From: a virus
Strand: one strand, 5' to 3'
IMG/VR virus record: IMGVR_UViG_3300005856_000023
Span: 32,001-96,000 of that record
DNA length: 64,000 nt
Below, piece by piece: positions 1 to 58,576 of the stretch (the first letter of the stretch is position 1; each line of letters starts with the position of its first letter). The position numbers were made by a program, and so were the translations under genes. The notes beneath the pieces were generated by a model. The model searched no databases, was not told where the DNA came from, and saw only the letters and a list, made by a program, of their open reading frames with translations.

Positions 1-2
1 CA

Positions 3-272: not shown

Positions 273-306
273 AATTTTTTTTATTTGAAAAGCGATTTCA
301 AATCTA

Positions 307-858
307 ATGAAAATTTTCTGCCCAGAGAATTTCATTAAGATAGGAACAAACTTTTACTTGGATAATAACTCTAACCTATTGCATATAGCAAATGCAGAGA
401 TCATACAGCTAGGTAATTTACTTTATCTCTCAGGTAGTATTCCTGTTGAAGTTAGGTATAATGTTTTTGAGATAGTAGATTATGAGGTAAAGTTTATCAA
501 AACTAAGTTCTATAAACTTAAGTTGTCAAACAATTTGGAAACATATATCAACTATATGAACAAAGATATTGATAAACTAAAACTAATACCTGTTGTTAAT
601 ATAGATAGAAATCAAAAAATTAGAACAAATACAATGCGTACAAAGATAGATAATATAGCAAAGTATAGAAGTTTGTTAAATCAGGGTTTACTGACTTATG
701 TGGGACAAAGCTATATAAGTACTAAACCAGATAACTACTTGATTGAGGATGATGGTGTTTATGTAAAAGTAGTTAGTAAGGAAGTAGTTGAATTTCCGTT
801 TATTATTGAATTCAGTAAAGATATAAGTTTGATTGATTGTCTCTACTATTTACAGTAA
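307..858 (+). CDS. hypothetical protein
   Basis: 183-aa ORF; AGC-N13-ATG upstream. Confidence 0.7.
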   Translation: MKIFCPENFIKIGTNFYLDNNSNLLHIANAEIIQLGNLLYLSGSIPVEVRYNVFEIVDYEVKFIKTKFYKLKLSNNLETYINYMNKDIDKLKLIPVVNIDRNQKIRTNTMRTKIDNIAKYRSLLNQGLLTYVGQSYISTKPDNYLIEDDGVYVKVVSKEVVEFPFIIEFSKDISLIDCLYYLQ

Positions 859-866
859 ACAAAAAA

Positions 867-2201
867 TCAGAATAGTTTGTATGGATCTCTATCAGCTTTA
901 ATGTTTATTATACTTTCGTATTTAATCCAAAGTGAATTCTTGGGAATAAAGACTATATCATTTCTATCAAACACAAAATCAGATATAAATATCATAACAT
1001 CATTATCATTCATTTCATTCTTTAAATGATTTAATACTTTTTTGGGACTTGTTCCGCCTCTTCCACGAACTTCAATATTTTCAAAATCTTTTTTGCTTCT
1101 TAATATCACTGGACCATAAAAGTCTACATCAAAGTAGTATACTTTTATTCTGCTCATCTTGATTAATTTTGAGAATTTACCAAACACATCCTCGAGAAAT
1201 TCTGTTGGAATTGACCCAGATGTATCTATTACTGCATAAAGGTATCTGGGATAACCTTTGTACATAAATTTTGTTCCCAATAGATCAGGATTTAGTTTAT
1301 TGATCTTCATAGGGGTTCTTCTCATATCATAAATTTTTTTACCATATAAATCATAATCTGTAGCAAATTTTTCAAGATATTTTTTCCAGTCGAATTGTGA
1401 ATGTTCTTTTGCTTTGACCAATTCTACAAAATTTCCTGGGTTAGTTCCTACATCTTTAATGCTTTCCAATACTCTATTAATCAAAACGAGTCTCATATTA
1501 TCTGTTATATCCGGAGCATCTTGTATCAATTCACCATCTATCATATTGTTAAAATCAAGTGTCATATAATTATAATGTTGTATATTATTTTCTTGTTTAA
1601 CGGAACATGTATTGCAATTACTTTCGCTATTTATAGACGCTCTTTTATCCTCTTTTTGTTGCATTCTTTTGTATATTTCATATGCTAATTGTTCTATTGT
1701 CATTGCTAAAGCATCTTCTATTTTAATATCAAATAGTTCTTCAATGTCATTTAGGAATATATCTTTCTTCAGAAAATCTCCCAAATCTGAAGATTTGCCT
1801 AGTTTAAACATTTTTTTGATATCTTCAATTTTTTCACTTTTGGTAGCATGAATTTTTGTAGTGTTAAATTTATCAATCTTATATGCTAACTGATATATGA
1901 TCTCATTAATAAATGCATTAGCGGCCATGTTGTAAATATCAGGTGGAATAATTTCTTTAACATTGTTATATCTCTTTATATGGTTGAAGATTATATGCAT
2001 TGCTCCATGAACTAGATATTTCAATAGTGTAGATTCATCCTTTATTGCATTTCTATTTACAATAATACAATCATCTTTTACTTTTATGGGAACACCAGAT
2101 AATGATGCTTCTGCAATCTTCATGAATTGTAGCATATGTCTGAGTTCAATCGGAATCTGATTCATTAAATAAATCTTTCTTACTGCGTTTCTGATATCCA
2201 T
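867..2201 (-). CDS. DUF2201-type metallopeptidase-like + vWA domain protein (MoxR partner)
   Basis: N-terminal HGAMHIIFNH and N-x-A-x-N-x-x-IN segment; C-terminal MIDAS IDTSGS, GRGGT, ISD. Confidence 0.85.
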   Translation of the reverse strand: MDIRNAVRKIYLMNQIPIELRHMLQFMKIAEASLSGVPIKVKDDCIIVNRNAIKDESTLLKYLVHGAMHIIFNHIKRYNNVKEIIPPDIYNMAANAFINEIIYQLAYKIDKFNTTKIHATKSEKIEDIKKMFKLGKSSDLGDFLKKDIFLNDIEELFDIKIEDALAMTIEQLAYEIYKRMQQKEDKRASINSESNCNTCSVKQENNIQHYNYMTLDFNNMIDGELIQDAPDITDNMRLVLINRVLESIKDVGTNPGNFVELVKAKEHSQFDWKKYLEKFATDYDLYGKKIYDMRRTPMKINKLNPDLLGTKFMYKGYPRYLYAVIDTSGSIPTEFLEDVFGKFSKLIKMSRIKVYYFDVDFYGPVILRSKKDFENIEVRGRGGTSPKKVLNHLKNEMNDNDVMIFISDFVFDRNDIVFIPKNSLWIKYESIINIKADRDPYKLF

Positions 2202-2207
2202 GACATT

Positions 2208-2246
2208 AAATTTAGATTAGTTGTTTCTAGCATCCACTCTAAATTT
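2208..2246. promoter_or_regulatory. back-to-back class-1 phage promoters (CTAAATTT-N6-ATG on each strand); representative of about 31 sites
   Basis: AAATTTAG at 2208-2215 is 6 nt from CAT 2199-2201; CTAAATTT at 2239-2246 is 6 nt from ATG 2253. Confidence 0.8.
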
Positions 2247-2252
2247 ATAATC

Positions 2253-3932
2253 ATGCTTGGTTTGCTAGAGTTATTGAAACCATCAACATATGTGATTGAA
2301 GTAACATTCTTCTGTGCATTACAAAATAAAAGGATGTTAGATTTAATCAAAAACATTTTACCCTATTGGAGTATGCTTGCAACTGAGGAGCAAAAACCTC
2401 TATTATCAATGTTAACTACATTTGTGAATAAGGGTATACCAGAACATGATTTCAAACTATCACAGCCATTGGAGTTTTATTACAAACTATTTGACGTAGC
2501 AAATCTCGATGAATTGCAATCAACAATACTGGATAGGTTATACAAAATACAATTTGTTGCTAAGGTATATGAGAAGATTCAACTATTCCAACATCCAATA
2601 CATGACTATGATAAAGTTGAAATGATTGTTAGTGAATTGTTATCTGATCTTAATGAAGTTAGAGACAAAGAACTAACAGAGAAAATCTTCAATGCAAAAG
2701 ATTTATTAAATGTAACAGAAATATCTGATTTGAAATTGGTTAGTTTGATACCAGAGTTAGATTTAGTATTGGGAGGATTTTATGTTAATAATCTTTATCT
2801 GTTTGCTGCAGGATTGGGACAGGGTAAATCATTTACATTACTTAACATGGCAGTAGGATTTTCAGTTTTCCTAAAAGCATTTGAAAACTACTATAAAGAT
2901 TGGTATGGTAAAAAACCAGTTGTTTTATACATATCACTGGAAAATACTAGCGTTCAGATCAGGAACAGATTATACACATTACTAAATGATTGTACATTAA
3001 CAATACCAAAAGAAAAAAATACTCCTTTGAAACAATTATTCCAAGCTGTGGATAACTTCTATATCATATCTTTATCAGATGAGATAGTGGATTATGTTTA
3101 CATAGAGAATATTGTGTTGTCGATGCAATCAAAAAATATGCATCCAGTTGTCATTGTGTTAGATTATATGGATGAGTTATATGCTCCTGCTAACATAAGT
3201 GAACATAGACATAAGTTAGGTTATAATGCTAGAATGTTAAGGAAGATAGCTATGAATCACAATCTACTAATTGTATCTGCTACACAGATAAACAGAAAAG
3301 GTATTGAAGAAGGTAATATATCCATTACACATTTATCAGAATCAATAGAACATGGTAAAGTAACAGATGTATTAGTCGGTTTAGTTCCAATAACAATAAA
3401 CAAAGGTTATATTATTACAAATCAACCTTTAACCAAAGATATTATTAAAAGCAATCTAGACAACAAAGCAGAAGCAATTGGAATGATAAATAGCATGTAT
3501 CTCAAAGTATTAAAGAATAGACCAAATCTATTAACAGGCTTTGGATATGCAATTAGTAATCAAAGTTTAACAGGATTTAGATCTCTCATATATGGATTGA
3601 ATTATGAAATCTCAATCTATCTTGTTCCGAGTTTACATTCATATTTAGGAGATGATTATATAACTACAAACTATGATGTATTGCATAGCAGCGTTACAAA
3701 TAGAATAGCACCATTCGTAAAAAATCTTGATGTTAAGGATTACAGTAAATATCAATACGGATTGGAGTTAATATCAAATCTACTTGGTATTGATATAAAA
3801 CAAATAAATGTAAACAATGAAAACATAGAAAATGACTTTGTAGTAAGTAATATCAATCAAAACATAGATGCACTTGATGTCATAGATGATTTTGAAACAT
3901 TCGAACAAAAAAGTTTAGATTTAGATATATAG
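2253..3932 (+). CDS. dnaB: DnaB-family (SF4) replicative helicase
   Basis: Walker A AAGLGQGKS, YISLEN, Walker B VLDYMD, SATQINR, VLKNR. Confidence 0.9.
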   Translation: MLGLLELLKPSTYVIEVTFFCALQNKRMLDLIKNILPYWSMLATEEQKPLLSMLTTFVNKGIPEHDFKLSQPLEFYYKLFDVANLDELQSTILDRLYKIQFVAKVYEKIQLFQHPIHDYDKVEMIVSELLSDLNEVRDKELTEKIFNAKDLLNVTEISDLKLVSLIPELDLVLGGFYVNNLYLFAAGLGQGKSFTLLNMAVGFSVFLKAFENYYKDWYGKKPVVLYISLENTSVQIRNRLYTLLNDCTLTIPKEKNTPLKQLFQAVDNFYIISLSDEIVDYVYIENIVLSMQSKNMHPVVIVLDYMDELYAPANISEHRHKLGYNARMLRKIAMNHNLLIVSATQINRKGIEEGNISITHLSESIEHGKVTDVLVGLVPITINKGYIITNQPLTKDIIKSNLDNKAEAIGMINSMYLKVLKNRPNLLTGFGYAISNQSLTGFRSLIYGLNYEISIYLVPSLHSYLGDDYITTNYDVLHSSVTNRIAPFVKNLDVKDYSKYQYGLELISNLLGIDIKQINVNNENIENDFVVSNINQNIDALDVIDDFETFEQKSLDLDI

Positions 3933-4008
3933 TTTTTTTGCTATGGAATACAATAAGTTTAATAACAAAAAAAGAGGGAGGAGGAGAGTAGCCATGAAGA
4001 GCTTCTAA

Positions 4009-5745
4009 TTACCTTTGAACGATAAGTCTACCTACTACATTAGGATAGATTACAGATGCTCCGAATCTATGAACAGCAGTCATTGCTTGACCAAGAGTAT
4101 TTGCAGGATAAGGTATCATATGGGTTGCATAAGGTGCATATATTGCAGTGGAGAAGAATTCTTGTTTGGATTTGAGTACAAGCAAGTTCCTACCAACAGG
4201 AAGTATAGGTGTAGGTAATACCTTTATCCACTCTTCAGATCCATCTTTGCTTCTGGTGTATATCTTGAATGGGTCTGCTTTCGTTACAGGATCGGATACC
4301 CACTTACCTATGTTAACAAGTAGTGAAGCATCTTCAACATTCATCACAAGTATGGGTTCTACTTCGGGAACAGGTGTATTCCTGAGTATCTTACCAAGCA
4401 GGTTAGATATTGCATAAGGGAAATGAGTCATAACGTACATGCCTGGTCCCCAACTGTAATCAGCAAGAGCATCAGCGGTCATATCTACAGATTCTTCTAT
4501 GTTATGAACAAGTGATGCATTATACAAGTTCATTAGAAGGAATGCATCAGTGTTAAGTGCAATTATAGAAGATAGTATGCTGCTTACTTCGCCGAGTATA
4601 TCGAGATTGAAGAGAACTTGAGCATCAAAAGCCATTTCAGGAGATACAAGTATTGTGCTTTCAAGTCTATTCTCCGCAAGAGTTTGTCTTGCAAGTTCAA
4701 GTCTGAGCTTCCTAGCAGGATCTCTCGATTCATAGGCTACTCTTGCATATACCTCTATACCTTGAATTGCAGGAGCAGTTCCACCAGTTGCTATAACAGT
4801 TATAGTGAAATCACCAGATTTGAAGTCTACTCTACCAGTTACATTAACAGTGTAGGTATTGGCACCAATGGTTGCAGTTCCAGCTCCGGTTATAGCACCA
4901 GACGATTCAATATTGGAAGATACATTTATTGTTCCAGATGTCGTATCATCAGTTATACGAACAGCTATTACTCTAAAATCAGGTGTTACCCTAAGCTTAT
5001 TGTCAGGAGCAACAGTCGCAGGAGGCAACAAGTTAGCCTCACGTAGAATGTTATACACATTACCTCTTATTATCTCTTCTGCAGCAGGAGTTGTAGCGGG
5101 AACAAATACACCCTGCCCAGGAGCTGTTCCGTAATAGCCGAGAGAATCTCCACTGAGAAGTCTACCAGTTGTCATGTCTACTGATAGATAGGATGAGAAT
5201 GGATAAGGATTTGTAGAGTTAGTTAATTCCTCATAAAACCTGAAGAAGTAAACATACGAACCTGGAGCAGACATATTCCTGACATCATATACTTGCGTTG
5301 CAACAAGTCTTGGATACATAAACCTTATCAGAGGAGCCAAATACATAAAGTATGGTATCACATTAGCAGATGTATTTTCTGTAGCTATAGCCCTAAGACT
5401 ATTTTCATACAAAGTTTTAATGGCTTTGGATAGTGAATATACTTCTGCCTCTGATAGATTACCTTGTTCTGCAACTATATCGGTTACTATTGCATTGGAT
5501 ATTAAATCAATTACAGTCCTATCACCTTGTAAAGCTCTTTTTGCTAGTTCTGATATTTTATCTACAAATTCTGATGGATTTTTAGATGCATTAACCTTAG
5601 TTATATCCGAATAAAATTCTTTCACTATTTTCTTGGCATCTTCAGCATTCTTATTTGCCATTTCCATTGCTAGACTGTAAATTCTTTTTGTAGATATAAT
5701 TGAGTCAGATGGGTAAAATCTTGATAGTCTTACGTCTTTATCCAT
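4009..5745 (-). CDS. major capsid protein, T4 gp23-like, with probable N-terminal propeptide
   Basis: LIRFMYPRLVATQVYDVRNMSAPGSYVYFFRF and SPEMAFDAQVLFNLDILGEVSSILSSIIALNTD parallel conserved gp23 blocks; possible protease site AIATE|N; AGC-N11-ATG. Confidence 0.85.
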   Translation of the reverse strand: MDKDVRLSRFYPSDSIISTKRIYSLAMEMANKNAEDAKKIVKEFYSDITKVNASKNPSEFVDKISELAKRALQGDRTVIDLISNAIVTDIVAEQGNLSEAEVYSLSKAIKTLYENSLRAIATENTSANVIPYFMYLAPLIRFMYPRLVATQVYDVRNMSAPGSYVYFFRFYEELTNSTNPYPFSSYLSVDMTTGRLLSGDSLGYYGTAPGQGVFVPATTPAAEEIIRGNVYNILREANLLPPATVAPDNKLRVTPDFRVIAVRITDDTTSGTINVSSNIESSGAITGAGTATIGANTYTVNVTGRVDFKSGDFTITVIATGGTAPAIQGIEVYARVAYESRDPARKLRLELARQTLAENRLESTILVSPEMAFDAQVLFNLDILGEVSSILSSIIALNTDAFLLMNLYNASLVHNIEESVDMTADALADYSWGPGMYVMTHFPYAISNLLGKILRNTPVPEVEPILVMNVEDASLLVNIGKWVSDPVTKADPFKIYTRSKDGSEEWIKVLPTPILPVGRNLLVLKSKQEFFSTAIYAPYATHMIPYPANTLGQAMTAVHRFGASVIYPNVVGRLIVQR

Positions 5746-7862: not shown

Positions 7863-7892
7863 GTCTATAAATTTAGACAAGTTGTAAAAAAC

Positions 7893-10947: not shown

Positions 10948-10968
10948 TTTTTTTTACTAACAAAAAAA
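10948..10968. terminator. bidirectional hairpin-less T-tract terminator (representative)
   Basis: T8 after the sheath TAA and T7 (minus strand) after the convergent gene's TAA. Confidence 0.6.
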
Positions 10969-14817: not shown

Positions 14818-14860
14818 AAGCTGACTTGCTTGTTGTTTCAATTAAACGATAACAAAAAAA

Positions 14861-17733: not shown

Positions 17734-17765
17734 TTTTTTTGCTCAACGATGCTAAATTTATCAAA

Positions 17766-18401: not shown

Positions 18402-19460
18402 ATGAGGTTAAGTAGTTTGCTACAAATTAATATTGATCGAATGCTATTGCTAGGACCTCCAGGTATCGGTAAAACATCTATTATTAAGCAGATTGCAATA
18501 TCAGAATCTGAAAAGAGAAATAAAATATTTGTTGATCTGAATGAAAAATTTTCAGCAGATGAGATATTGAAAAATCCAGATAAATACTATGTATACTATA
18601 GGATTATTGCTCCGTATTTTAATAGTGATATCATAGAATTTCCAAAAATTGTTGATGGATATGTTAAATTATTTCCTGTAGAGGTATTTGAAGTATTACA
18701 GAAATGCGAAGGTATACTATTTGTTGATGAGATAACGAATGTTCAAATACCTCATATAAGAACATTGTTCTATTCATTACTTGATTCAAAGGAATTGGGT
18801 AGTCATATAAAATTGAGTCATTTGAAAATTGTAGCGGCTGGGAACAAAATTGAACATTCGGAAGATGCGGAAACATTACCAAAACCATTGAGAAACAGAT
18901 TAATAATTGTTAATGTAGAAGTAGATGCTAATGATTGGCTAAAGTGGTATACATCATCTAATTCATTCAATGAACATGTTGCCGCGTTTATACATGAACA
19001 TCCAGGATATTTGCTATATGATGTTGATCCAAAATATGATGATGGATACACTAATTTTGCATCACCAAGAACATGGGAACGAGTTGGATTATTGCTAAAT
19101 GAAACAAAAGATAATATTGATACAAAAATTAGGAGAGAATTGTTAATGGGATTGTTAGGACCAATTGTAGCTGATAAGTTTGACTCATTCTTAAAATATA
19201 ATGTTGACTATCATAGATTAAAGAATCACTATGAATATTGGAACTCATTACATAGATCACAGAAATTGATGGCAATATTCACGATTGCAGCTAACATCAA
19301 CAAAGAATGGATTAAATTTCTAATGTGGCTAATTGATCATGAACCGGAGATGGTTAAGATTTGTTTGGATAAGGTTAATACAAAACTAGATATGGATATA
19401 GTCAAAGATCTAACAATGCTTAATGTTCAACTATCAAAAAAGATTTCGCTATTGAGATAA
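18402..19460 (+). CDS. MoxR-like AAA+ ATPase
   Basis: GPPGIGKT, LFVDEI, VAAGN, PLRNR, FASPRTWE. Confidence 0.88.
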   Translation: MRLSSLLQINIDRMLLLGPPGIGKTSIIKQIAISESEKRNKIFVDLNEKFSADEILKNPDKYYVYYRIIAPYFNSDIIEFPKIVDGYVKLFPVEVFEVLQKCEGILFVDEITNVQIPHIRTLFYSLLDSKELGSHIKLSHLKIVAAGNKIEHSEDAETLPKPLRNRLIIVNVEVDANDWLKWYTSSNSFNEHVAAFIHEHPGYLLYDVDPKYDDGYTNFASPRTWERVGLLLNETKDNIDTKIRRELLMGLLGPIVADKFDSFLKYNVDYHRLKNHYEYWNSLHRSQKLMAIFTIAANINKEWIKFLMWLIDHEPEMVKICLDKVNTKLDMDIVKDLTMLNVQLSKKISLLR

Positions 19461-19832
19461 ATTGATCATTTTTTGCTTCCAGAACTCTATTAAATACTTC
19501 TTTTTAAATATGTGATTTCTGCTAGCATACAATTTCAGAGTATTTTTTATAATCCTCATTGTATATAATTTGAGACTAAAATATTTACCATCGGTTAGAT
19601 ACGAGATTAGCAGCCTATCTTTATAGATTTCAGAGCTCATCATTAATTCCTTTAAGCCAAGCCTGGTAAAATTTGATGCTAATTTATCACCTCCGTAAAC
19701 AGGCAATATATCCACATCGTCAATATCATAAAAGTTATCATCTTTTGCATATTTGATTTGATAGAATTTTTTTGCTTTCTCATGTTGTCCAAATAATATG
19801 TGTGCTGATACCTCCTTATGCTGATCTTGCAT
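19449..19832 (-). CDS. hypothetical protein
   Basis: 127-aa ORF with class-1 promoter. Confidence 0.65.
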   Translation of the reverse strand: MQDQHKEVSAHILFGQHEKAKKFYQIKYAKDDNFYDIDDVDILPVYGGDKLASNFTRLGLKELMMSSEIYKDRLLISYLTDGKYFSLKLYTMRIIKNTLKLYASRNHIFKKKYLIEFWKQKMINLSQ

Positions 19833-20897: not shown

Positions 20898-20929
20898 AGT
20901 GATAAATTTAGCATAGGTGTAAAAAAATG

Positions 20930-21226: not shown

Positions 21227-21256
21227 GTTTATAAATTTAGATTGGTTGTAAAAAAA

Positions 21257-21841: not shown

Positions 21842-21872
21842 TTTAATAAATTTAGCCTGGTTGCATAAAAAA

Positions 21873-24941: not shown

Positions 24942-24973
24942 ACTCCTAACAGCTGTTACAAAAAAATAAAAAA

Positions 24974-26299: not shown

Positions 26300-26402
26300 A
26301 AGTTTTTTGATGATTCAAAGTATACACAAAAAAACAAATTGCTTACTATAAAATATTTCTCGTAGATCTTATTTGTATTACCATTAAGCACAATTGTAAA
26401 GT

Positions 26403-26746: not shown

Positions 26747-26831
26747 TTTTGCAGACGGGCAGGGTGTTCCACTTTTTTTGTCAAATTACAAGTAGTTAAC
26801 CTACTAACATTAACTAGATTAAGATAAAAAA

Positions 26832-27380: not shown

Positions 27381-27412
27381 AATCATAAATTTAGATTAGA
27401 TGCAAAAAAACA

Positions 27413-31012: not shown

Positions 31013-31057
31013 TAAGCATTTTTTTATACGTTTTACAATCTGTCTAAATTTAGTGAT

Positions 31058-31786: not shown

Positions 31787-31827
31787 TTTTTTTATAGAAT
31801 GTTAGCTGTTATGACAGCACTTTGAGA

Positions 31828-33728: not shown

Positions 33729-33738
33729 TTTTTTTGCC

Positions 33739-33760
33739 AAAAAAAGCCCCGCGAGGGGGG
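33739..33760 (-). terminator. classical intrinsic terminator
   Basis: Minus strand CCCC-TCGC-GGGG-C-T7 right after the 33762 stop. Confidence 0.75.
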
Positions 33761-33761
33761 A

Positions 33762-35805: not shown

Positions 35806-35851
35806 TTTTTTTACTTTAAGATCAAAATAAAATCTGTCTAAATTTATATTA

Positions 35852-35896: not shown

Positions 35897-35953
35897 TCGG
35901 TTTGATCACTATTTTGACTATTTATATTTCTTATTTTTTTGCAAAAAACTAGC

Positions 35954-37321
35954 TTACGTTGCTATAACATATCCTGCTAGTGAATCATACAATATGTTAA
36001 CATTTAAACCTCCATGTGGAACAAATAAATGTTTTGTTACATCAAACTTATCATTTTTGCTATCAAGATAGAATAAGACAACTGTATCACCATCAGCATC
36101 TGCATTGTATCCTTCCCATACCAGTTGATTCATTTGTATTGCAAATCCATCGTATGCTCCAGCTATTTTGAATTGCATTGTAGAAGGCAAATGTAATACA
36201 GGTTGTCTCATAAGCAATACATAAACATCTTCTTTGTTTATTATCTCATCAATTATTTTTTTGATTGTTTCATCTACCTTTAAAGTTTGGTAGACATAAT
36301 CAATTCTTTCAGTTATATTACTTTGTTTCTGCTCAATTAGTTTGGATATGATTTTGTCCTCTAGCAACATGAAAGCACAAATATAAGGAACAACTACTTC
36401 ATTTGGTTTGATAGCAGGATTTCCAACCAAAACAGCCCTAGTGCTTAAATCAATTCTTCTACCTAGCGTTTTACCTCTAATTGGACCTGTTTTCTTTTTT
36501 ATGAAGGATGATATTATTTTATGCTCTATTTTGTATAGTTTATGTAACATATTACCATATATAAAGTATTTTGTAGATGTTTCATCTATATCAAGTTTCT
36601 TGTTTGCAGATAAGAGATCAAGATAATCTCTGTTGATCTCATGCAAATTTAAAACGGTTAGATTTTTACCAAATGCAATATTAATATCTCTGACTCCAGC
36701 AGGTAATACATTAATATATTCCACAAAAGCATTGTCAAAGCTAACATTGTTTCTGATGGCTTGTACTAGTTGTATGTTATCATTCAGTTTATTATAAATG
36801 AGCGATGAAACTTGTTCATATAAATCCAAATCCTGATCCAAATATAAACCTTTCTCCAAAGCAATTGAACCAAATTTATCAATCATTGTTTGTATGGACG
36901 CATTATATATCTTAGCAAGTAAATGAAGCCATATACCAAAAGGAGATAAAACCTTCTTCTCAATATACAAACCAAGTGATTTATCCTGTATACCATTATT
37001 CTCATCATAAGCATACATTCCAAATAAACTTTCATACCTATGAAGTATTAACAATATTAATGGATGTGGAACAGGAACATTCAATTTAATTTTACCGATT
37101 GTGTATGCTCTCATGTATGCAGGTTTAGATTCAACATTGCAAACAGGACAAATATATTTTGGTGGGCGAATTATATTGCAAGCACAAGTATAATCATATA
37201 CTGGACCAAATATAGTCTCACTAAATATACCTAATGGATGAAATCTCCACGTTAATCCATAATTTTCTGGCTTAATATTTGATCCCTCAAATATAAGTGG
37301 TTCTGTGATAAATAAACTCAT
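35954..37321 (-). CDS. RNA polymerase beta' N-terminal/catalytic fragment
   Basis: GIFSETIFGP..DYTCAC..CPVC zinc finger, LGRRIDLSTRAV, MRQPVLH, catalytic YNADADGD. Confidence 0.92.
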   Translation of the reverse strand: MSLFITEPLIFEGSNIKPENYGLTWRFHPLGIFSETIFGPVYDYTCACNIIRPPKYICPVCNVESKPAYMRAYTIGKIKLNVPVPHPLILLILHRYESLFGMYAYDENNGIQDKSLGLYIEKKVLSPFGIWLHLLAKIYNASIQTMIDKFGSIALEKGLYLDQDLDLYEQVSSLIYNKLNDNIQLVQAIRNNVSFDNAFVEYINVLPAGVRDINIAFGKNLTVLNLHEINRDYLDLLSANKKLDIDETSTKYFIYGNMLHKLYKIEHKIISSFIKKKTGPIRGKTLGRRIDLSTRAVLVGNPAIKPNEVVVPYICAFMLLEDKIISKLIEQKQSNITERIDYVYQTLKVDETIKKIIDEIINKEDVYVLLMRQPVLHLPSTMQFKIAGAYDGFAIQMNQLVWEGYNADADGDTVVLFYLDSKNDKFDVTKHLFVPHGGLNVNILYDSLAGYVIAT

Positions 37322-37453
37322 AACAAAAAAATTTAGCATACGTGCAAATAACTACTATCTCAGTAGCAGACTATATAATAACAATTTTTGTTTAGTTTTT
37401 GATCATAGTTTTTGTTTATATAAGTATACAAAAAAATTTAGATGATTTGTTCG

Positions 37454-40623: not shown

Positions 40624-40663
40624 TCTTAGTTTTGCTCAAAGCGTTCAGTAAGAACAAAAAAAG

Positions 40664-45081: not shown

Positions 45082-45099
45082 TTATTTTTTTGCAAAAAA

Positions 45100-45669: not shown

Positions 45670-45703
45670 ATCAAATTTTTGTGCTTACAATAAACAAAAA
45701 ATT

Positions 45704-52257: not shown

Positions 52258-52259
52258 AC

Positions 52260-52560: not shown

Positions 52561-52582
52561 ACAGTAACCCTTTCCTTCTTCT

Positions 52583-53347
52583 TCATACTAACTCTTCAGC
52601 TGATCTTTCAATACATGATTTATCATACTTTAGACGGCTTCTTATGGTATCGCTCGCTGAAATTAGACATACTTCCCTGCTCCACCATGCTTCTTCTACG
52701 CAATTCTTCAATTTCTTGTGAAGGTAGATATACCCCCACCGCTCAGGTTCATCCTCATCTATCTCCACCTTTTCTATATATTTCTTTAAAAGCAACGGGC
52801 TTATTTCATACAGCATATTCAAAAACTCTTCTATTCTACCGCTTGAGCTTTCTATTAACTTGCTATTAATATTCTTGTTCCTGTAATCAAACCAGAAAGG
52901 ATTATAAAATGTAGTATGAGGATGGAACATTCTCGGTTCTCTTTTTACCATTAAACTTTTCCATCCATCTTGTCCATCTTGATTCTTGTGTTCTGGATGC
53001 AGTAGTTTTATGAAATCTTCTAAATTCATCGCTTCATCTAGCTCTACACTTCTTAGCCTTATGTGATAATCATCAGGGAAAATATAAGAGGCAAGAGTGA
53101 TGAAATCTTCTATACGCAGATGTCCAACGCCTTTCCAGTTGCTTTTTGTGAAATTTAGACTTAGCAACCAATCCAACAAATATTCGCGATTTAATTTCCA
53201 TTTGTAAGGGTTCTTGCGCAGACTATTCCTCATAAATGTTATTTCAACATGTTTTTCTGTTAAATTAAGCTCATAATCTGGGTATTTATATTCACAGTTT
53301 GGGTCTCCACATCTGTGTGTTAGCAAAGATATGTTTACTTTTTTCAT
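52583..53347 (-). CDS. hypothetical protein
   Basis: AAGGAGGT SD 7 nt before ATG 53347. Confidence 0.75.
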   Translation of the reverse strand: MKKVNISLLTHRCGDPNCEYKYPDYELNLTEKHVEITFMRNSLRKNPYKWKLNREYLLDWLLSLNFTKSNWKGVGHLRIEDFITLASYIFPDDYHIRLRSVELDEAMNLEDFIKLLHPEHKNQDGQDGWKSLMVKREPRMFHPHTTFYNPFWFDYRNKNINSKLIESSSGRIEEFLNMLYEISPLLLKKYIEKVEIDEDEPERWGYIYLHKKLKNCVEEAWWSREVCLISASDTIRSRLKYDKSCIERSAEELV

Positions 53348-53367
53348 CTCTGACACCTCCTTGTCTG

Positions 53368-53729
53368 TTAAGCTTCTTGGTAGTGAATGCTATAGCCCTC
53401 CTCTTCATAGCCTTTCAGAAAGCCCTCCATTTCCTCTCTTTTCAGCAGATGGCATGGGTAATCTCATAAACCCTAATCCTTGAGTGATAATTCCCACCAT
53501 CATTATGCATAATCCGGTCGTATTTCCAACAATCACACGGTTCTTCTACTATCACACACTCCTCTAATACTTGTAGGTTGTCTATCAACTCCGCCAAGCC
53601 CTCATCACCATTTATCCCATACACCTCATCATACCCAAAGCTTTCCACAACCACATTGCCAAGCACTCCGCGGTCGCAATACTCTCTCATGTCCCTTTCG
53701 TATTTGCACATGGTTTGCAACTCTTTCAT
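53368..53729 (-). pseudogene. frameshifted/internally deleted hypothetical gene (ORF stops at 53442)
   Basis: Protein-like tail LLKREEMEGFLKGYEEEGYSIHYQEA* continues in another frame. Confidence 0.5.
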
Positions 53730-53813
53730 GACTTCACCTCCTCTTAAGGTTTTCATAATTTTAATTTTAGACAAGTTTTAGACTTATCATGTGTAGTATG
53801 CTTAAAGTATATT

Positions 53814-54371
53814 TTACTCAACCTGTATAGCATAAAGATCTTTTAAGTTGCGATACATGCCCATGTAATCCAAGCCATATCCGATAATCCAGATGTTTTC
53901 ATTGTCTATGGTGAACAGACTGAAATCTGGCTTGTAGACATTATCTTTAGTTACGTTTGCCAGCAATGTAGCTGTTATTATTTGTTTAGCTCCTTTATTT
54001 TGTAAATGTTCTGTTACAAAATACAATGTTTTGCCCGTTGCCACTATATCATCAAGCAATAATACAACTTGATCTTTTATATTGTGATTTATGTCTTTAA
54101 TGAATTTAATGTTTCCGGATGTGAATGAGTTTCCATAACTGCTTACTTGGATGAAATCCAAAACAACAGGTATTTTGCTGAAAGCAGATGCTACATCTAT
54201 TGTGAAATAAATTGCTCCAGTTAGTATACCGATAATGAATAGTTTATTGATATTGTTTGTAATTAATTCTCTTTCTAAGTCGTTTACAAATTCGTTAATA
54301 CTTGATGTTATTTGTTTGTTATCAATAAACAAATGAGCTAATTTACCATCAGGTAAATGTATATATGACAT
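53814..54371 (-). CDS. hpt: hypoxanthine/guanine phosphoribosyltransferase
   Basis: GILTGA, VSSYG, VLLLDDIVATGKTL, IGYGLDY...YRNL; SD AGGAGGT before ATG 54371. Confidence 0.92.
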   Translation of the reverse strand: MSYIHLPDGKLAHLFIDNKQITSSINEFVNDLERELITNNINKLFIIGILTGAIYFTIDVASAFSKIPVVLDFIQVSSYGNSFTSGNIKFIKDINHNIKDQVVLLLDDIVATGKTLYFVTEHLQNKGAKQIITATLLANVTKDNVYKPDFSLFTIDNENIWIIGYGLDYMGMYRNLKDLYAIQVE

Positions 54372-54530
54372 AGTCCACCTCCTAATGCGTTTTGTAGCAA
54401 TAACAATTTGTATATAACCTTCTCTAGCCAATCTCTCTATAAATCTTCTTTCTGTGAATGTTAATTTGGAGTGATATCTTGCAATACCGCAACGTACTTC
54501 AGGGAATTTGTACTTAGATTTCTAGCAAAT

Positions 54531-55154
54531 CTACTTGTAAACTAAAATCTCTTTGAGATCAATAACTTTAACACTATATGGTTGCATACTACAGAATCTA
54601 TCATCAGGTTTATATGCAACATATATATACATATCATCAATAATGGTGTAATATAGAGGCATAAATGTATTTGCAATAACTAGCTTATCATTTTCTACGT
54701 CATAAACTATTTCTACACTTGATCTTGGATATTTTTTTACTGATTGCATAAACCATTTGTTAATGTTCTCATAATCAATAGTCTCATATATATCAAGCAA
54801 AGCCTGACTATCAATCTTAATGTTTTTGTTTATTTGTTCTGCATTTGGTATTATTCCATGATGTGCTACATAAAATCTATTGTTTGTGTAAATATTCGGT
54901 CCATTGTATGTATTTGTTTCTGTTTCTGGTATTGCTCTACTATGTAGTAATAACAACTTAGTTGGCATATATAAATCAACTAGTGTTTTGAATGTATCAT
55001 AATCTTTGTTATGTATTAAGCGAACATTAAAATCATCATCAACAATCAATGCACTGTAATTATCTCTACCTTTTGTTGGCAATATATCAAGCATATAATC
55101 AACTAAATCAGGCTCCAAATAATTCTTGCTGTAGGATAAAACTATGTTACACAT
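54531..55154 (-). CDS. class II (Ntn) glutamine amidotransferase, Gat
   Basis: N-terminal MC, HSRA, VAHHGII, IDSQ; overlaps the queC stop. Confidence 0.85.
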   Translation of the reverse strand: MCNIVLSYSKNYLEPDLVDYMLDILPTKGRDNYSALIVDDDFNVRLIHNKDYDTFKTLVDLYMPTKLLLLHSRAIPETETNTYNGPNIYTNNRFYVAHHGIIPNAEQINKNIKIDSQALLDIYETIDYENINKWFMQSVKKYPRSSVEIVYDVENDKLVIANTFMPLYYTIIDDMYIYVAYKPDDRFCSMQPYSVKVIDLKEILVYK

Positions 55155-55965
55155 GGCTTGCTCCTAAGGTAAGTCCAAATTTCTCAAGTTTTTGTTCTAG
55201 TTTCTGTTTATCCTGTAATGCTACATCCAAGAGCATTTTAACATCTTCATAACTTACCGGTTGAGAATCAAAATCTATTTCAATAGCATAATCTATTTGA
55301 TCTTTAACTTTGGCTCTTTTGAATGCTTCTATTCTAAATCTACATGAGTTACATACTCCACATGCTAAGTTGTTAACAGGATAATAGCAAGATGTTGAAT
55401 TTTTGAAATCTGCTCCAAGATATGCTCCAATCTTTACCAATTCTGTTTTTGTGAATCTTATTGTTGGACTTATGAAGAAGATTGGTTGCTCATAGGGATA
55501 GTATGTAGTAGCAAGAAACATTTCATTCAAATTCTCAAGAAATCTATCTGTGTTATCTGGGTATGCTCCCATTTCACTAATATTGAATGCAAATGATACT
55601 ATGTTAATGTTTAATTTGCGAGCATATTGTGCTCCTATCAGTGCAAACTGTAAATTCCTGTATGGAACTAAATCTACAGGAGCCTCTCTGCCATCAGATA
55701 CATCTACATCAATATCACTATTTCCATCTGTCAATTTTGAACCAAGTATTCTATCACTAATTTTATGCGTGATTAATTTTAATCCATTTGCAGAAGCAAA
55801 TCTTTTTGTAGATTGTAATTCAGCTTCTAATGCTTTTTGTCCATAATCAATAAACAACAATATAGGTTCAATCTTGTAAATATGTTGTAATATGCTAACA
55901 TTAACAACAGAATCTAATCCTGAACTGAATAGTACAATTGCTTTTTGGTTAGTTACGTTTGTCAT
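55147..55965 (-). CDS. queC: 7-cyano-7-deazaguanine synthase
   Basis: SSGLDS, DYGQ, VPYRN, YPD, SCY..ACGVCNSC..R. Confidence 0.95.
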   Translation of the reverse strand: MTNVTNQKAIVLFSSGLDSVVNVSILQHIYKIEPILLFIDYGQKALEAELQSTKRFASANGLKLITHKISDRILGSKLTDGNSDIDVDVSDGREAPVDLVPYRNLQFALIGAQYARKLNINIVSFAFNISEMGAYPDNTDRFLENLNEMFLATTYYPYEQPIFFISPTIRFTKTELVKIGAYLGADFKNSTSCYYPVNNLACGVCNSCRFRIEAFKRAKVKDQIDYAIEIDFDSQPVSYEDVKMLLDVALQDKQKLEQKLEKFGLTLGASHV

Positions 55966-55979
55966 AATGATAAATTTAG

Positions 55980-57300
55980 TTTACCTGCTAACTATCTTAA
56001 TCCAGTAAGCAATAACATTACAATAGATGTTTCAGAGTTTTGTACAATAAAATTGCTAACGATACTAGCTATGTCTTTTCTTATGATATCCTCCCTCTTT
56101 GTTTTCTTTACAGTGAACAGAATCTAGACATGCAAACAGTATAAAACTAAATGTAAACTGCAAACGATAAGTTGTCAAAATAAATTCTCCCTCTTTTTTT
56201 GTTTGGTTTTCTAAGACTATGGACTATAAATTTAAGCACGAATGCAATCAAACTATATCATAATTGTAATAATGTAAAATGCAACTAATGATATAGAACT
56301 GCAAAAGGAAACTTGAAGATTTCCTCCCTCTTTTTGTTTTACTGAACAGTCTATAAGTAAGTTTAGGCATAGTGAATAAAACTTTTACTACACTATAGCT
56401 AAACTATATAGTAAGTATATAGACGATATTTACTATGTATGATACACATATAAAATCAGCATACATTCATAAGCAATATTCAAAATACAGAATACAAAAT
56501 ATAGACAATAAGTCAAATAAGTATATAACATACTAACAGATATTATATAACTGATTTAACAATAGTATTTCTTTGTTTTGTAATACAGTATCTATATTCT
56601 GTATTCTGTTTAATTGTTACATTGTTATCTTCTTTTTCTGATAATCTATCTGTTTTACAATAACGTTATAGATAATATGTATACTGTATTGTTATTATTC
56701 CGTTCCGATATAGTAACAATATTTATAGCTTATTTATCCTCTATACGTTATGTGTACAACATATACCAAATATATAATTTAGCATTGCATGACAAACAGT
56801 GAAATAGAAAGACAAAACAATTAACAGATCAGATACAAAACGATACAATAGTTTCTATGCAATCAAATTTTACTTTTTGTTCTTTGCAGTAGAAATTTAG
56901 CTATTGTGATTACAGATTATAAAGAAAACTATTTTCTGTTTTTTGCAAACATATAATACCGTATTCTGTTATGCTATAGATCATAATCTGTTTACAGAGA
57001 AATATTTCTTTTTTTGTCTATTGCAATAGAATTCATTTTATTTCGATACAACTGTATTTGCAATCGGATTTAAAGAATCTTTCTGCTAACAGATATTTAG
57101 AAACAGTGTATCATATACATTTAAAATGTTTTCTGCAAACAAATATATTAGACTTACATCTATTGTTTAGAAGTTTTAATGCAATGCAATTCAAAAACAG
57201 TAGATAAGAAAGCAATAAGATTTAAGAAATGTATTGCATACAAAAAAAGCAAAATATTCACTAAGTCCACTTTTATAGTATGTGTTATCAAATGTATATT
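55980..57300. other. 1.3-kb non-coding AT-rich region, candidate replication origin or genome-end region
   Basis: No credible ORF; many TGCAA motifs; inverted repeat 56486-56505/56591-56610; three CTCCCTCT(n)GTTT copies. Confidence 0.5.
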
Positions 57301-57314
57301 GTAGCTATCATTTT

Positions 57315-57845
57315 ATGTTTTCATATGAAAGTTTTGATAGCAGCATAAAAAAGATAGATAACATCATAATCTTTTTGGAGTCTAAAGGAAATAAAACAGA
57401 AAGCACAAATTTAAACAATAATGAAAACAGTTTGAAAAACAATGATTTAAGTTTAACGGATTTTAGTTTGAATGAACAAGAAAACAGTTTAAAAAACAAC
57501 GATGATAGTTTAATAGATTTGGATGCAGAGTTAGATATAAATAAAGTTCAATCCAATATAGATGATATAAGTGCTATCAATGTAAATGATATAGATGAAC
57601 AACTATATAAAGAGACATTGCTCTCAAAAATAGATTATATTGTAACTCTGATACAGATATTACATAGGAAACTAATAAATGATCTAGAGAAAAAGTATAT
57701 GTTAAAATTCTTGCAAAAAGAGTTAAGTAAAATTGCAACTGCTATGAACAGCGAAACCAGTATAAACAATGTTGATGAATATCTTGATGCTATCATTCAG
57801 AAATTGGAAGCATTTATTGCAGAGCAAATAACAAAAAAAATCTAA
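57315..57845 (+). CDS. acidic hypothetical protein, possible head/scaffold component
   Basis: AGC-N9-ATG; internal ENSLKNND duplication. Confidence 0.65.
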   Translation: MFSYESFDSSIKKIDNIIIFLESKGNKTESTNLNNNENSLKNNDLSLTDFSLNEQENSLKNNDDSLIDLDAELDINKVQSNIDDISAINVNDIDEQLYKETLLSKIDYIVTLIQILHRKLINDLEKKYMLKFLQKELSKIATAMNSETSINNVDEYLDAIIQKLEAFIAEQITKKI

Positions 57846-57854
57846 TAGTACTGG

Positions 57855-58550
57855 TTAGGTTTTATTTTTGTATACGAGTTTAACTCCATCTAGTTTCTTT
57901 ATATCTTCTGCGGTTAAATATTTGTTGTTTTTGGCTTGCTTTCTATCAACACCAAGATACATAGAACCGTTATTGAACTCTATTATTTTGTAGCGGTATA
58001 ATAAAGGTTTTAGTTTACTTAGTTTTGCTACTAATTCTTTGTCTTGCTGTAAAGCTTTAATTTTTTGTTCTGTAGCAATAACATCAAATGATATATTGTT
58101 ATTCTTTTTAGTGTTTGTTTCTGCATCCACTTTTGGTGTTTCTTCATTATTATTATTAGCAGACTCTAGGTTCAATTGTACTTGTTTGTTTTCTGTATTA
58201 CTCAATATGTAAGCAATTATACTTGGTAAAACAAGGTTAGCAAAAGGAACAAATATAGTTATTGATACTGAGAGTAAAGAGACATCTGTCCATAGTTTTG
58301 TAGTTGCAGTCATAACTAAAAACCAAACAAATGCTCCAAATGATAAAGCAATAATCTTTAGAATTAATTTACGATAATAGATAGCTACAAACGAAAAGTA
58401 TGCTGCTAATAATTCTACACCTAACGATAATGGTATTGTCTGTAACGTATGCACAGCAAAATATCTATAGACATAAACCAGATCTACAAATATGAACATG
58501 AGTATTAGTGTGTATATAGTTAAGCCAGAAATCATAAAGAATTTCTGCAT
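57855..58550 (-). CDS. membrane protein with about four N-terminal TM helices
   Basis: Four hydrophobic stretches in the first 115 aa; basic soluble C-terminus. Confidence 0.75.
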   Translation of the reverse strand: MQKFFMISGLTIYTLILMFIFVDLVYVYRYFAVHTLQTIPLSLGVELLAAYFSFVAIYYRKLILKIIALSFGAFVWFLVMTATTKLWTDVSLLSVSITIFVPFANLVLPSIIAYILSNTENKQVQLNLESANNNNEETPKVDAETNTKKNNNISFDVIATEQKIKALQQDKELVAKLSKLKPLLYRYKIIEFNNGSMYLGVDRKQAKNNKYLTAEDIKKLDGVKLVYKNKT

Positions 58551-58576
58551 TTAGTTTAGCTAATAAAAACAAAAAA

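Follow-up and report, generated by a model that had tools for sequence, protein, structure and literature searches.

Termination at T-runs in described systems

Runs of T are counter-selected within the genes of archaea, as they are in the phage considered here. The early terminator of poxviruses is U5NU in the nascent RNA, read by the capping enzyme together with the SNF2-type ATPase NPH-I, and African swine fever virus uses poly-T terminators. These two resemble the phage in encoding a multisubunit polymerase of their own and in having a T-rich hairpin-less signal after genes and many short units on both strands, but they are eukaryotic viruses with Pol II-like enzymes. According to a review, the RNA polymerase (RNAP) of Methanothermobacter terminates intrinsically at oligo-T tracts (Santangelo and Reeve, 2006, via PMC13675443), and archaeal termination shares with the phage a non-template T-run at gene ends with no need for an upstream hairpin (PMC13675443). 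A compact genome and very short 3' UTRs are further common traits, whereas the phage differs in its jumbo-phage-type beta/beta' homologues instead of the archaeal 12-subunit RNAP, in its likely host, which is a bacterium, and in the narrow length of its run (6-8) with a fixed purine-pyrimidine on the 3' side. Pol III, in the same review, stops at bare poly(dT) with the weak rU:dA hybrid as the proximal cause and leaves RNA ending in oligo-U; the bare T-run stop and the oligo-U RNA end are what the proposal for the phage shares with it (PMC13675443). The phage enzyme is of a different lineage, and Pol III serves short non-coding genes, whereas the phage signal follows protein-coding genes and abuts their stop codons. 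For the jumbo phages 201phi2-1 and phiKZ, 132 mapped termination sites are reported with conserved stem-loop motifs, 52 being classed as intrinsic hairpins (PMC11512511). The phiKZ-like phages rely on two split-subunit polymerases of their own and have many terminators, some of them bidirectional (PMC11512511); the present phage would resemble them in this, but their stem-loops contrast with the T-run alone found here.

The phage record and its polymerase genes

The analysed record, IMGVR_UViG_3300005856_000023, comprises 129,010 bp, and the window, that is the whole 64,000-nt stretch presented here, corresponds to its positions 32,001-96,000; coordinates below refer to the window unless marked as genome. 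The genome has about 30% GC, its intergenic DNA being 72% A+T, and a bacterium of the family Aquificaceae is its likely host. The habitat of the phage is a hot spring. Two sets of split beta/beta' RNAP subunits are encoded in the record; they belong to the phage beta/beta' homologues and share about 25% identity with the AR9, phiR1-37 and YerA41 enzymes. The relevant genes are as follows:

Genome 21644-23236 and 104165-106909: RNAP beta genes
Genome 16788-18083 and window 35954-37339: RNAP beta' N-part genes
Window 35954..37339, minus strand: RNAP beta' N-terminal part (PF00623), present twice in the record; candidate subunit of the signal-reading enzyme
Genome 107594-109231: RNAP beta' C-part gene, plus a weak second match
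Genome 8655-10577: SNF2-family ATPase gene

The initial annotation had read the gene ends as an archaea- or eukaryote-like transcription logic; given phage-type polymerases and a likely bacterial (Aquificaceae) host, this reduces to a functional analogy. Poxviruses and the phage both have an SNF2-type ATPase, although the similarity is generic: the phage protein matches only Rad54/chromatin-remodeller ATPases (best PDB entry 1z63, E = 5e-15), and its similarity search gave no specific link to any termination factor.

T-runs following stop codons

The gene set consisted of 142 greedy ORF calls over the whole 129,010-bp record, 73 of them in the window. A run of at least six T starts 0-8 nt past the stop of 51 of the 142 genes, against 6 of 142 for runs of at least six A in the same place (sign test p = 6e-10); in the window alone the counts are 27/73 and 3/73. 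Lengths are narrow (20 T6, 27 T7 and 4 T8), and 22 of the 51 runs directly abut the stop codon. The next base is G in 32 cases, A in 18 and C in one, and the second is T in 24, C in 21, A in 4 and G in 2, so that the typical element is T6-8, purine, pyrimidine (TTTTTTTGC, TTTTTTTAC, TTTTTTGT). The sites in the window are listed below (coordinates, strand, run, position).

275..282, plus: T8, 2 nt past the stop at 272
861..866, minus: T6, then GT; abuts the stop of gene 867-2201
3933..3939, plus: T7, then GC; abuts the stop of the DnaB-like helicase gene 2253-3932; X15 record 1 contig ends at 3939
3967..3973, minus: T7, then G; 35 nt past the stop of the major capsid gene 4009-5745; X18 adapter-tagged end at 3977
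7886..7891, minus: T6, 1 nt past the stop of gene 7893-9044; opens a 30-nt spacer; X17 record 17 contig 7892-9026
10948..10955, plus: T8, abuts the stop of gene 9208-10947; end of an X18 contig at 10955
10962..10968, minus: T7, abuts the stop of convergent gene 10969-11928; T8-N6-A7 double tract with 10948-10955
14854..14860, minus: T7, then GT; abuts the stop of gene 14861-15289
17734..17740, plus: T7, then GC; abuts the stop of gene 17497-17733
19436..19441, minus: T6, 7 nt past the stop of gene 19449-19832
19469..19474, plus: T6, then GC; 8 nt past the stop of gene 18402-19460, within the convergent gene's 3' end; X18 contig 18395-19474
19856..19862, minus: T7, then AC; abuts the stop of gene 19863-20897; opens a 30-nt putative terminator-promoter spacer
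20921..20927, minus: T7, 2 nt past the stop of gene 20930-21226
21250..21256, minus: T7, abuts the stop of gene 21257-21841
21867..21872, minus: T6, abuts the stop of the RecA-like gene 21873-22985
24968..24973, minus: T6, then A and T7; abuts the stop of gene 24974-25633
26303..26308, plus: T6, 3 nt past the stop of gene 25697-26299
26826..26831, minus: T6, abuts the stop of gene 26832-27386
27404..27410, minus: T7, then GC; 2 nt past the stop of gene 27413-28093
31019..31025, plus: T7, 6 nt past the stop of gene 30494-31012, which closes an array of four tandem paralogues
31787..31793, plus: T7, abuts the stop of gene 31058-31786
33729..33735, plus: T7, then GC; abuts the stop of gene 33021-33728; spacer shared with an opposite-strand hairpin terminator
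35806..35812, plus: T7, then AC; abuts the stop of gene 34588-35805
35943..35948, minus: T6, then GC and A7; 5 nt past the stop of the RNAP beta' N-part gene
40656..40662, minus: T7, then GT; 1 nt past the stop of the ThyX gene 40664-41602
45085..45099, both strands: near-palindromic T7-GC-A6, common to convergent genes 43381-45081 (plus) and 45100-45669 (minus); T-run then GC either way
45696..45701, minus: T6, then GT; 2 nt past the stop of the radical-SAM gene 45704-46465
58571..58576, minus: T6, then GT; abuts the stop of the PD-(D/E)XK nuclease gene 58577-59368

All 20 stops for which the initial annotation had named a T-run do carry one (T6-T8, coding strand, 0-3 nt past the stop), and the T/A double tracts that it ascribed to convergent ends are seen at 10948-10968, 45085-45099 and 33729-33745. 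Its wording that almost every native gene ends in this way was too strong: runs at 0-8 nt occur in 36% of genes only (51/142), and with runs further out included, 68 of the 99 native gene ends separated from the following gene by more than 5 nt carry one, the other 31 native, uncoupled ends having none within reach. Convergent and tandem ends have runs equally often (18/50 and 33/91). Some runs lie within the opposing gene's 3' end (e.g., 19469-19474), and most sites are half-sites rather than palindromes.

Hairpins at the runs

Folding energies of the 45-nt segments preceding the runs are no more favourable than those of random 45-mers from coding sequence (mean -3.20 versus -3.74 kcal/mol, Mann-Whitney p = 0.27), and only 2 of the 51 runs have next to them a stem at or below -6 kcal/mol, which bears out the view of the runs as hairpin-less. 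Canonical Rho-independent terminators share with them a transcript-terminal U-tract of 6-8 nt but have the GC-rich hairpin that is missing at 49/51 phage sites. A consensus hairpin-terminator scan of window positions 1-20000 found none in these 20 kb, against 6.0 (sd 2.6) expected from shuffles. A scan of the 129 kb for intergenic hairpins plus T returned only two sites, at about 33745 (minus) and 60461 (plus); they are the very two hairpins proposed from initial inspection, both adjoining GC-rich genes (GC 0.42):

33739..33761, minus: canonical GC hairpin with T7, after the GC-rich gene 33762-34064 (GC 0.42)
60440..60466, plus: canonical hairpin with T5, flanked by the clamp-loader gene 59442-60380 and by the GC-rich gene 60552-61715 (GC 0.42)

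Counter-selection within genes and conservation among relatives

Sense-strand T-runs are strongly selected against within genes. Runs of at least six T number 18 in the sense strand of coding sequences, while 65.0 (sd 6.2) are expected from synonymous-codon shuffles, and none of the 100 shuffles reached so few; for runs of at least six A the same shuffles give 226.7 expected against 204 observed. The observed/expected ratios are thus 0.27 for T and 0.91 for A; 16-18 runs of at least six T are still left within sense coding sequence. In 60 equally AT-rich loci of distant RNAP-encoding phages, pooled, the ratios are 0.82 (T) and 0.86 (A).

The motif is conserved within the lineage at about 45% beta identity. 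Two contigs with an RNAP beta of that identity carry a run after 12/14 genes (L096) and 12/17 genes (L103), mostly as TAA + T7-8 + GC, and their pre-ATG motif differs from that of this phage; L100, which is the same phage as L096, has 9/11. Among close relatives the count is 36/133, and a second group at about 45% beta identity (L095, L097, L098, L102) is mostly devoid of runs (3/23 genes). In a 97%-identical relative, 2/49 run positions were changed against 73/598 other intergenic positions, a difference that is not significant (p = 0.10). None of 80 loci of distant RNAP-encoding phages, many with 24-33% GC, had more than one such gene, and a second distant set had T-runs after 23/749 genes and A-runs after 39/749. 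Since distant phages this AT-rich lack the pattern, the run is not a by-product of AT-richness. In Aquificota loci representing the likely host family, Aquificaceae, only 4 of 193 stops had a run, i.e., the pattern is not in use there.

Junctions and transcription units

Tandem arrays often show a fixed 30-nt spacer in which the run precedes CTAAATTT by 10 nt (e.g., after gene 7893-9044: T-run, 9 nt, CTAAATTT, 6 nt, ATG), and in some very short spacers the stop codon and the run form part of the promoter-like string. Nevertheless, the run is statistically independent of the promoter motif CTAAATTT: tandem pairs with a gap of more than 5 nt have run plus CTAAAHTT in 15 cases, run alone in 17, CTAAAHTT alone in 19 and neither in 24. 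Among the 30 junctions of class A, 2 have a run ahead of the promoter as well as one embedded in it, 11 have only the preceding run, 10 only the embedded run and 7 neither; this tendency of the two positions to exclude each other (Fisher p = 0.026) is consistent with a single run at each junction, placed upstream of the start site. By promoter class, runs follow 26/50 and 19/54 genes in the two native classes and just 1/17 genes with a Shine-Dalgarno-like leader. Where the tandem gap is 5 nt or less, only 1/16 pairs has a run and 14/16 have neither run nor promoter motif; operons therefore exist, and the claim of one promoter per gene with monocistronic units is overstated, the more so as RNA contigs bridge several runs.

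RNA contigs

The RNA evidence consists of assembled contigs from four metatranscriptome runs and is a weak hint at most. Among the 32 pieces listed (589 further pieces exist), three stop exactly at the final T of a run that follows a stop codon (3939, 10955 and 19474) and one ends 1 nt short of a run (7892). Strain differences in homopolymer length could be a source of such ends, and X15 has a 1-nt deletion at 10948. Seven of the 24 loose ends listed (24 further ones exist) carry letters that we take to be sequencing adapter: those at 10944 and 3977 fall 3-4 nt short of a run, those at 7847, 9226 and 21822 fall within an ORF, 15-19 nt from its 5' end, a 3' end at 20964 precedes its run by 37 nt, and the one at 4726 is internal to the capsid gene. 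The X17 contig 9226-10944 corresponds to precisely one gene, with adapter-like letters on both sides. Several runs are bridged by the contigs X16 9185-13598 (10948-10968), X16 18453-20875 (19436-19474 and 19856-19862), X17 4865-7847 (the T8 at 7214-7221) and X17 17502-19816 (17734-17740); therefore either read-through or DNA in the libraries is present.

Interpretation

The observed motif, polarity, in-gene counter-selection, conservation and hairpin absence, together with the polymerase genes of the phage, support the view that the run behaves as a strand-specific signal at transcript ends, and we consider it probable (about 0.6) that T6-8 followed by purine-pyrimidine is a hairpin-less terminator read by the phage's own RNA polymerases. 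The run presumably brings about termination rather than marking a processing site; its presumed readers are the phage multisubunit polymerases, not the host (Aquificaceae) enzyme, and they would need no factor. As the polymerase transcribes the run, a 6-8 bp rU:dA hybrid would become too weak to hold the complex, all the more at hot-spring temperature, and the RNA would be released with a short U tail. Since no hairpin is needed, the signal can abut the stop codon. In E. coli, a hairpin terminator a few bp past a gene is reported to be repressed (PMC4824070), a limit that a hairpin-less signal would escape. A palindromic T7-GC-A7 would serve both convergent genes, and in tandem arrays the next near-leaderless promoter (CTAAATTT, 6-7 nt, ATG) would follow 10 nt past the run, giving 30-nt stop-start cassettes. 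The purine-pyrimidine after the run is unexplained by a simple weak-hybrid model and may point to a sequence-specific factor.

Among the other readings, an RNA processing or stability signal, with a host or phage endonuclease cutting read-through RNA or a protein-bound U tail protecting the 3' end, is unlikely. Such an endonuclease would prefer single-stranded AU-rich RNA and cut at or beside the U-run; the same polarity, post-stop position and sense-strand counter-selection would be predicted, the fixed purine-pyrimidine resembles a recognition site more than a weak hybrid, and the bridging contigs imply that longer precursors may exist. Yet downstream genes with a promoter-like motif of their own directly past the run need no processing, convergent ends, with only antisense RNA downstream, have runs as often as tandem ends, just 4/193 stops of the likely host family show the pattern, and no nuclease is linked to the signal. 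Rather unlikely, too, is reading by the host polymerase or with the aid of a phage or host protein that recognises T6-8 plus purine-pyrimidine in DNA or nascent RNA and releases the polymerase, on the model of poxvirus U5NU with its SNF2-type ATPase or of protein roadblocks at palindromic T7GCA7. The two conserved bases after the run, the palindromic convergent sites and the SNF2-family gene (genome 8655-10577) would suit it, but the SNF2 protein is of generic Rad54/chromatin-remodeller type, half-sites predominate over palindromes, and neither the likely host family loci nor the genes with host-like leaders (1/17) share the pattern.

That the run belongs to the next gene, as an upstream promoter element or a U-rich translation enhancer, is suggested by the fixed 30-nt spacer with CTAAATTT 10 nt on and by the very short spacers in which stop and run enter the promoter-like string. 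This seems very improbable, considering that 18/50 convergent ends carry a run without any downstream gene, that run and motif are independent (15/17/19/24), that relatives with a different pre-ATG motif retain the run, and that it is tied to the upstream stop codon (22/51 abutting); the sense-strand depletion would be left unexplained as well. A by-product of AT-richness or a strand-neutral DNA structure (A-tract bending) with no role in transcription could be imagined in a genome of about 30% GC with 72% A+T between genes, but is hardly tenable against the narrow length (6-8) and flanks of the run and its conservation at about 45% protein identity; it is contradicted by the 51 to 6 polarity of T over A and by equally AT-rich distant phage loci, which lack the pattern.

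Termination at the runs by the phage polymerases would result in many short units of one to a few genes, not strictly monocistronic, and such logic might plausibly explain the scrambled gene order. Termination at a bare T-run in the manner of archaea or Pol III would be a mode not described before for a phage.

Oligo-T runs at the ends of phage genes

Gene ends were analyzed on 142 greedy ORF calls covering 94% of the whole virus record of 129,010 bp, in which the window occupies bases 32001-96000 (coordinates marked as genome refer to this record, the others to the window). Runs of T6-T8 on the coding strand, 0-3 nt past the stop codon, were confirmed at 20/20 of the stops for which the initial annotation had listed bare oligo-T termination. 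Throughout the record, a run of at least six T begins 0-8 nt past the stop of 51/142 genes, and a run of at least six A in the same place was found at 6/142; the window alone gave 27/73 and 3/73 genes, respectively. The runs comprise T6 (n = 20), T7 (n = 27) and T8 (n = 4), 22 of them abutting the stop codon, and their length agrees with the U-tract (about 7-9 nt) of a bacterial intrinsic terminator. The first base past the run is G in 32 cases, A in 18 and C in one, while the second is C in 21 and T in 24; the motif is T6-8, purine, pyrimidine. The poxvirus signal TTTTTNT is contained in every T6-8 run, this match being trivial. Certain runs lie farther from the stop, as exemplified by the T7 run 35 nt behind the capsid gene. 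With these farther runs included, a run is present at 68/99 native gene ends for which the distance to the neighbouring gene exceeds 5 nt. Of the tightly coupled gene pairs, 1/16 has a run. Termination of this kind after almost every native gene, as initially claimed, was too strong a statement.

Absence of hairpins and compositional controls

The hairpin-less character of the sites held, as a stem next to the run with a folding energy of at most -6 kcal/mol was detected at 2/51 sites only. Folding of the 45 nt upstream of the runs was no stronger than that of random coding 45-mers (-3.20 vs. -3.74 kcal/mol, p 0.27). A consensus scan of positions 1-20000 of the window recognized no hairpin terminators (6.0 in shuffles, sd 2.6), and the same scan revealed no enrichment of sigma-70-like promoter matches (101 vs. 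128.4). Within the entire 129 kb only two intergenic hairpin-plus-T terminators were found, at ~33745 (minus strand) and ~60461 (plus strand); both adjoin genes of 0.42 GC. In the initial annotation, real hairpin terminators had been placed only beside acquired genes. The T-run sites thus differ from canonical bacterial intrinsic terminators in the defining feature of the latter, the GC-rich hairpin, which they lack.

Runs of at least six T number 105 in 8,040 intergenic nucleotides, and within coding sequences there are 202 antisense runs as compared with 16-18 sense runs; the comparison of the two coding strands, a check proposed in the initial annotation, therefore gave far from equal counts. 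In synonymous-codon shuffles, 65.0 (sd 6.2) sense-strand T-runs were expected within coding sequence vs. 18 seen, and 226.7 A-runs of at least six vs. 204 seen. The observed-to-expected ratios are accordingly 0.27 for T and 0.91 for A, compared with 0.82 and 0.86, respectively, in 60 AT-rich loci of distant polymerase-encoding phages. None of 80 distant polymerase-phage loci from the viral collection has a post-stop run at more than one gene, and in a second distant set the T-run was found at 23/749 genes and the A-run at 39/749. Aquificota loci around the reductase gene, a weak sample as the loci are orthologous, have a run at 4/193 stops and possess GGAGG leaders. Two features expected of an oligo-T terminator are present in this phage: the runs are enriched at gene ends, relative both to chance and to A-runs as a control, and they are avoided in the sense coding strand.

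Promoter-like motifs, gene classes and operons

The promoter-like motif CTAAAHTT begins 14-15 nt upstream of 50 called start codons. Among tandem gene pairs separated by more than 5 nt, 15 have both the run and this motif, 17 the run alone, 19 the promoter motif alone and 24 neither, so the two elements are independent of each other. At the 30 class-A junctions, a run before the promoter and an embedded run (CTAAATTTTTTG) tend to avoid each other (both 2, before 11, embedded 10, neither 7; p 0.026). This pattern points to a need for a single run at each junction, placed upstream of a start site that coincides with the ATG or is close to it. Runs stand behind 26/50 and 19/54 genes of the two native promoter classes, behind 1/17 genes with a Shine-Dalgarno-like leader and behind 1/25 genes in the genome region 80-100 kb. 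Tandem pairs with a gap of at most 5 nt have neither run nor promoter motif in 14/16 cases, so short operons exist, and the initial proposal of one promoter per gene and monocistronic transcription is overstated.

The phage, its polymerase genes and likely host

The record is linear according to IMG/VR and ~50% complete according to CheckV. The window has a GC content of ~30% and contains neither tRNA genes nor Rfam matches. Its genes include those for a major capsid protein of the gp23 type and for a DnaB-like helicase. Two copies of each of the split RNA polymerase subunits are present in the record:

RNA polymerase genes of the phage
RNAP beta: genome 21644-23236; genome 104165-106909
RNAP beta' N-part: genome 16788-18083; window 35954-37339
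RNAP beta' C-part: genome 107594-109231; a second, weak match at genome 99453-100379

The larger beta shares ~25% identity with its counterparts in the phages YerA41, phiR1-37 and AR9, which places this phage in the broad group bringing their own multisubunit polymerases. Searches of the phage collection with 6.8 kb of the window (megablast) and with the capsid protein (tblastn) gave no match, and the word-indexed protein search returned two capsid relatives only.

The large subunit of ribonucleotide reductase (window 38323-40623, GC 0.40) is 82-88% identical to genes of Hydrogenobacter, Thermocrinis and other Aquificaceae, and judging from its sequence looks like a recent acquisition from the host. 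Near-identical DNA is present in hot-spring, hydrothermal-vent and microbial-mat metagenomes; these habitat data serve as context only, four rows with almost no shared words being disregarded. Considering the Aquificaceae-like reductase and this occurrence, a thermophilic bacterium is the most likely host. Contig L209 (94 kb, assigned to Thermodesulfobacteriaceae by binning) shows 92% identity; it may come from a relative of the phage and have been placed in the wrong bin.

Several other loci of the window deserve description. A GC-rich island (~46890-53800; GC 0.40-0.46) is marked by a strongly negative GC skew and by Shine-Dalgarno leaders, and its GC hairpins have no T-runs; its module 47510-48421 is repeated at 51191-52108, and most of its ORFs lack a Pfam family (none was found for 8 of 10 island proteins searched). 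Genes for a radical-SAM protein (45704-46465), a phosphoribosyltransferase (53814-54431) and QueC (55147-55965) together point to a 7-deazaguanine pathway of the preQ0 type, and perhaps to DNA modification in this phage. Four tandem paralogues of 172-174 aa (28740-31012) are separated by conserved spacers of 61-62 nt, with a T7 run behind the last one only.

Conservation of the runs among relatives

Related metagenome contigs were put in three groups by identity of the beta subunit. Close relatives (beta 97-99%) have the run at 36/133 genes. Among mid-distance relatives (beta ~45%), it is found at 12/14 genes of contig L096 and 12/17 of L103, the beta genes of which are 81.5% identical; L100 (9/11 genes) is the same phage as L096, with 99.9% identity over 11.4 kb. 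In L096 and L103 the run is mostly TAA + T7-8 + GC, and a palindromic T7-GC-A7 is common to convergent genes. The pre-ATG motif of these two contigs is unlike CTAAATTT of the phage studied here while the run stays, hence retention of the run does not depend on the promoter. In the second group at ~45% (L095, L097, L098 and L102) the run occurs at 3/23 genes. Comparison with the 97%-identical L005 revealed changes at 2/49 run positions vs. 73/598 other intergenic positions, the difference being not significant (p 0.10). At the left end of L095 (1-33), a tRNA-like GC-rich stretch, judged by eye, lies just behind a stop codon.

Ends of metatranscriptomic contigs

The phage is present in six metatranscriptomes, and contigs of four of them (X15-X18) were compared with positions 2001-22000 of the window. 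Assembled contigs cannot prove RNA ends, their depth is one figure per contig, and uncovered parts were not counted as evidence. Among the 32 contig pieces listed (589 more exist), three reach exactly to the last T of a post-stop run (3939, 10955 and 19474) and one stops 1 nt short of a run (7892). Among the 24 contig loose ends listed (24 more exist), seven presumably represent library adapter. Such adapter-like ends lie 3-4 nt short of a run at 10944 and, behind the capsid gene, at 3977, and also 37 nt short of a run (20964) and inside the capsid gene (4726). Exactly one gene is covered by the X17 contig 9226-10944, which bears adapter-like letters at both ends. Contig 5' ends located 15-19 nt inside ORFs were observed at 7847, 9026, 9226 and 21822 (adapter-like at 7847, 9226 and 21822), and these ORFs have a promoter-like motif 6-13 nt before the ATG. 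The 5' ends of transcripts are usually lost in library making, and given this loss the positions fit leaderless or near-leaderless mRNAs.

Contigs bridging the runs (X16 9185-13598 and 18453-20875; X17 4865-7847 and 17502-19816) count against the terminator reading. Read-through across T-runs, regarded in the initial annotation as decisive against it, or else DNA in the libraries, is thus visible in some contigs, while others end at the runs. The run at 10948 shows a 1-nt length polymorphism, so breaks of assembly at homopolymers are a possible artefact.

Two variable sites were also noticed. An insertion hot spot (3937-3956) immediately follows the helicase-gene T-run, in the interval where the helicase and capsid genes converge: an X16 RNA contig has 562 extra letters there, and L005 carries ~2.9 kb extra (11801-14717) with pieces resembling the GC-rich island. 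Between the divergent genes 7893-9044 and 9208-10947, 63 nt (9121-9185) are swapped for 14 letters in X16 and X18 contigs; a T7 run (9183-9189) immediately precedes the promoter-like motif, of AGC type, that belongs to gene 9208.

Possible functions of the T-run

In our view, the T-run is probably a terminator that the phage polymerases use without the need for a hairpin, with a probability of about 0.6. That it is instead a signal for processing or stability of RNA seems unlikely. A factor-dependent signal, or one read by the host, is rather improbable as well; a SNF2-family ATPase of 640 aa is indeed encoded in the record (genome 8655-10577, outside the window), but as a candidate termination factor it gave generic Rad54/remodeller matches only (best PDB 1z63). 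It is very doubtful that the run belongs to the downstream gene, as a promoter upstream element or a translation enhancer, since it is independent of CTAAAHTT (15/17/19/24) and is retained where the pre-ATG motif differs; this reading was rejected. A mere by-product of base composition it can hardly be: AT-rich loci of distant phages do not display the pattern (23/749 genes; ratios of ~0.8), and this explanation was rejected.

The T-run resembles the U5NU signal of poxviruses and the poly-T signals of African swine fever virus. Its behaviour also matches oligo-T termination in archaea and poly(dT) termination by Pol III, as described in PMC13675443. The archaea/eukaryote-like logic proposed initially is therefore apt for the behaviour and not for the enzyme, a phage-type split beta/beta' polymerase related at ~25% to those of AR9, phiR1-37 and YerA41, which places the system outside the archaeal, Pol III, poxvirus and African swine fever virus ones. 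The stem-loop terminators of 201phi2-1 and phiKZ-like phages differ, too: mapped termination sites of 201phi2-1 carry a conserved stem-loop motif according to PMC11512511, and the T-run sites have none. In the literature searched we found no account of a phage multisubunit polymerase that terminates at oligo-T tracts lacking a hairpin, although the supplementary terminator tables of PMC11512511 could contain such sites, and nothing on this hot-spring phage lineage; terms for terminator, promoter and hot spring are absent from PMC7481178. A 2020 review of phage multisubunit RNA polymerases states only that their termination properties must differ from those of canonical enzymes (PMC7598289).

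Tentatively, and at somewhat less than even odds, we propose that a lineage of thermophilic Aquificaceae phages with jumbo-type machinery has evolved its own polymerase punctuation: a bare T6-8 followed by purine and pyrimidine, hairpin-free and perhaps factor-free, which forms stop-start cassettes of ~30 nt by fusion with near-leaderless promoters, so that most genes would be self-contained on either strand. This would represent a convergent re-invention of archaeal, Pol III and poxvirus-style termination by the polymerase of a bacterial virus.

Almost nothing is known about termination by phage-encoded multisubunit RNA polymerases. If the terminator reading is true, the T-run would be the first defined non-hairpin terminator for these enzymes and a testable handle on termination by a minimal two-barrel polymerase, and synthetic biology might gain from it bidirectional terminators that are compact and heat-proof. 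Oligo-U release would then reach beyond archaeal and eukaryotic enzymes, and the extreme compaction (3' UTRs of 0-3 nt) and mixed gene orientation of these genomes would be explained. For this lineage, the T-run would offer a practical rule for annotating gene ends and transcription units.
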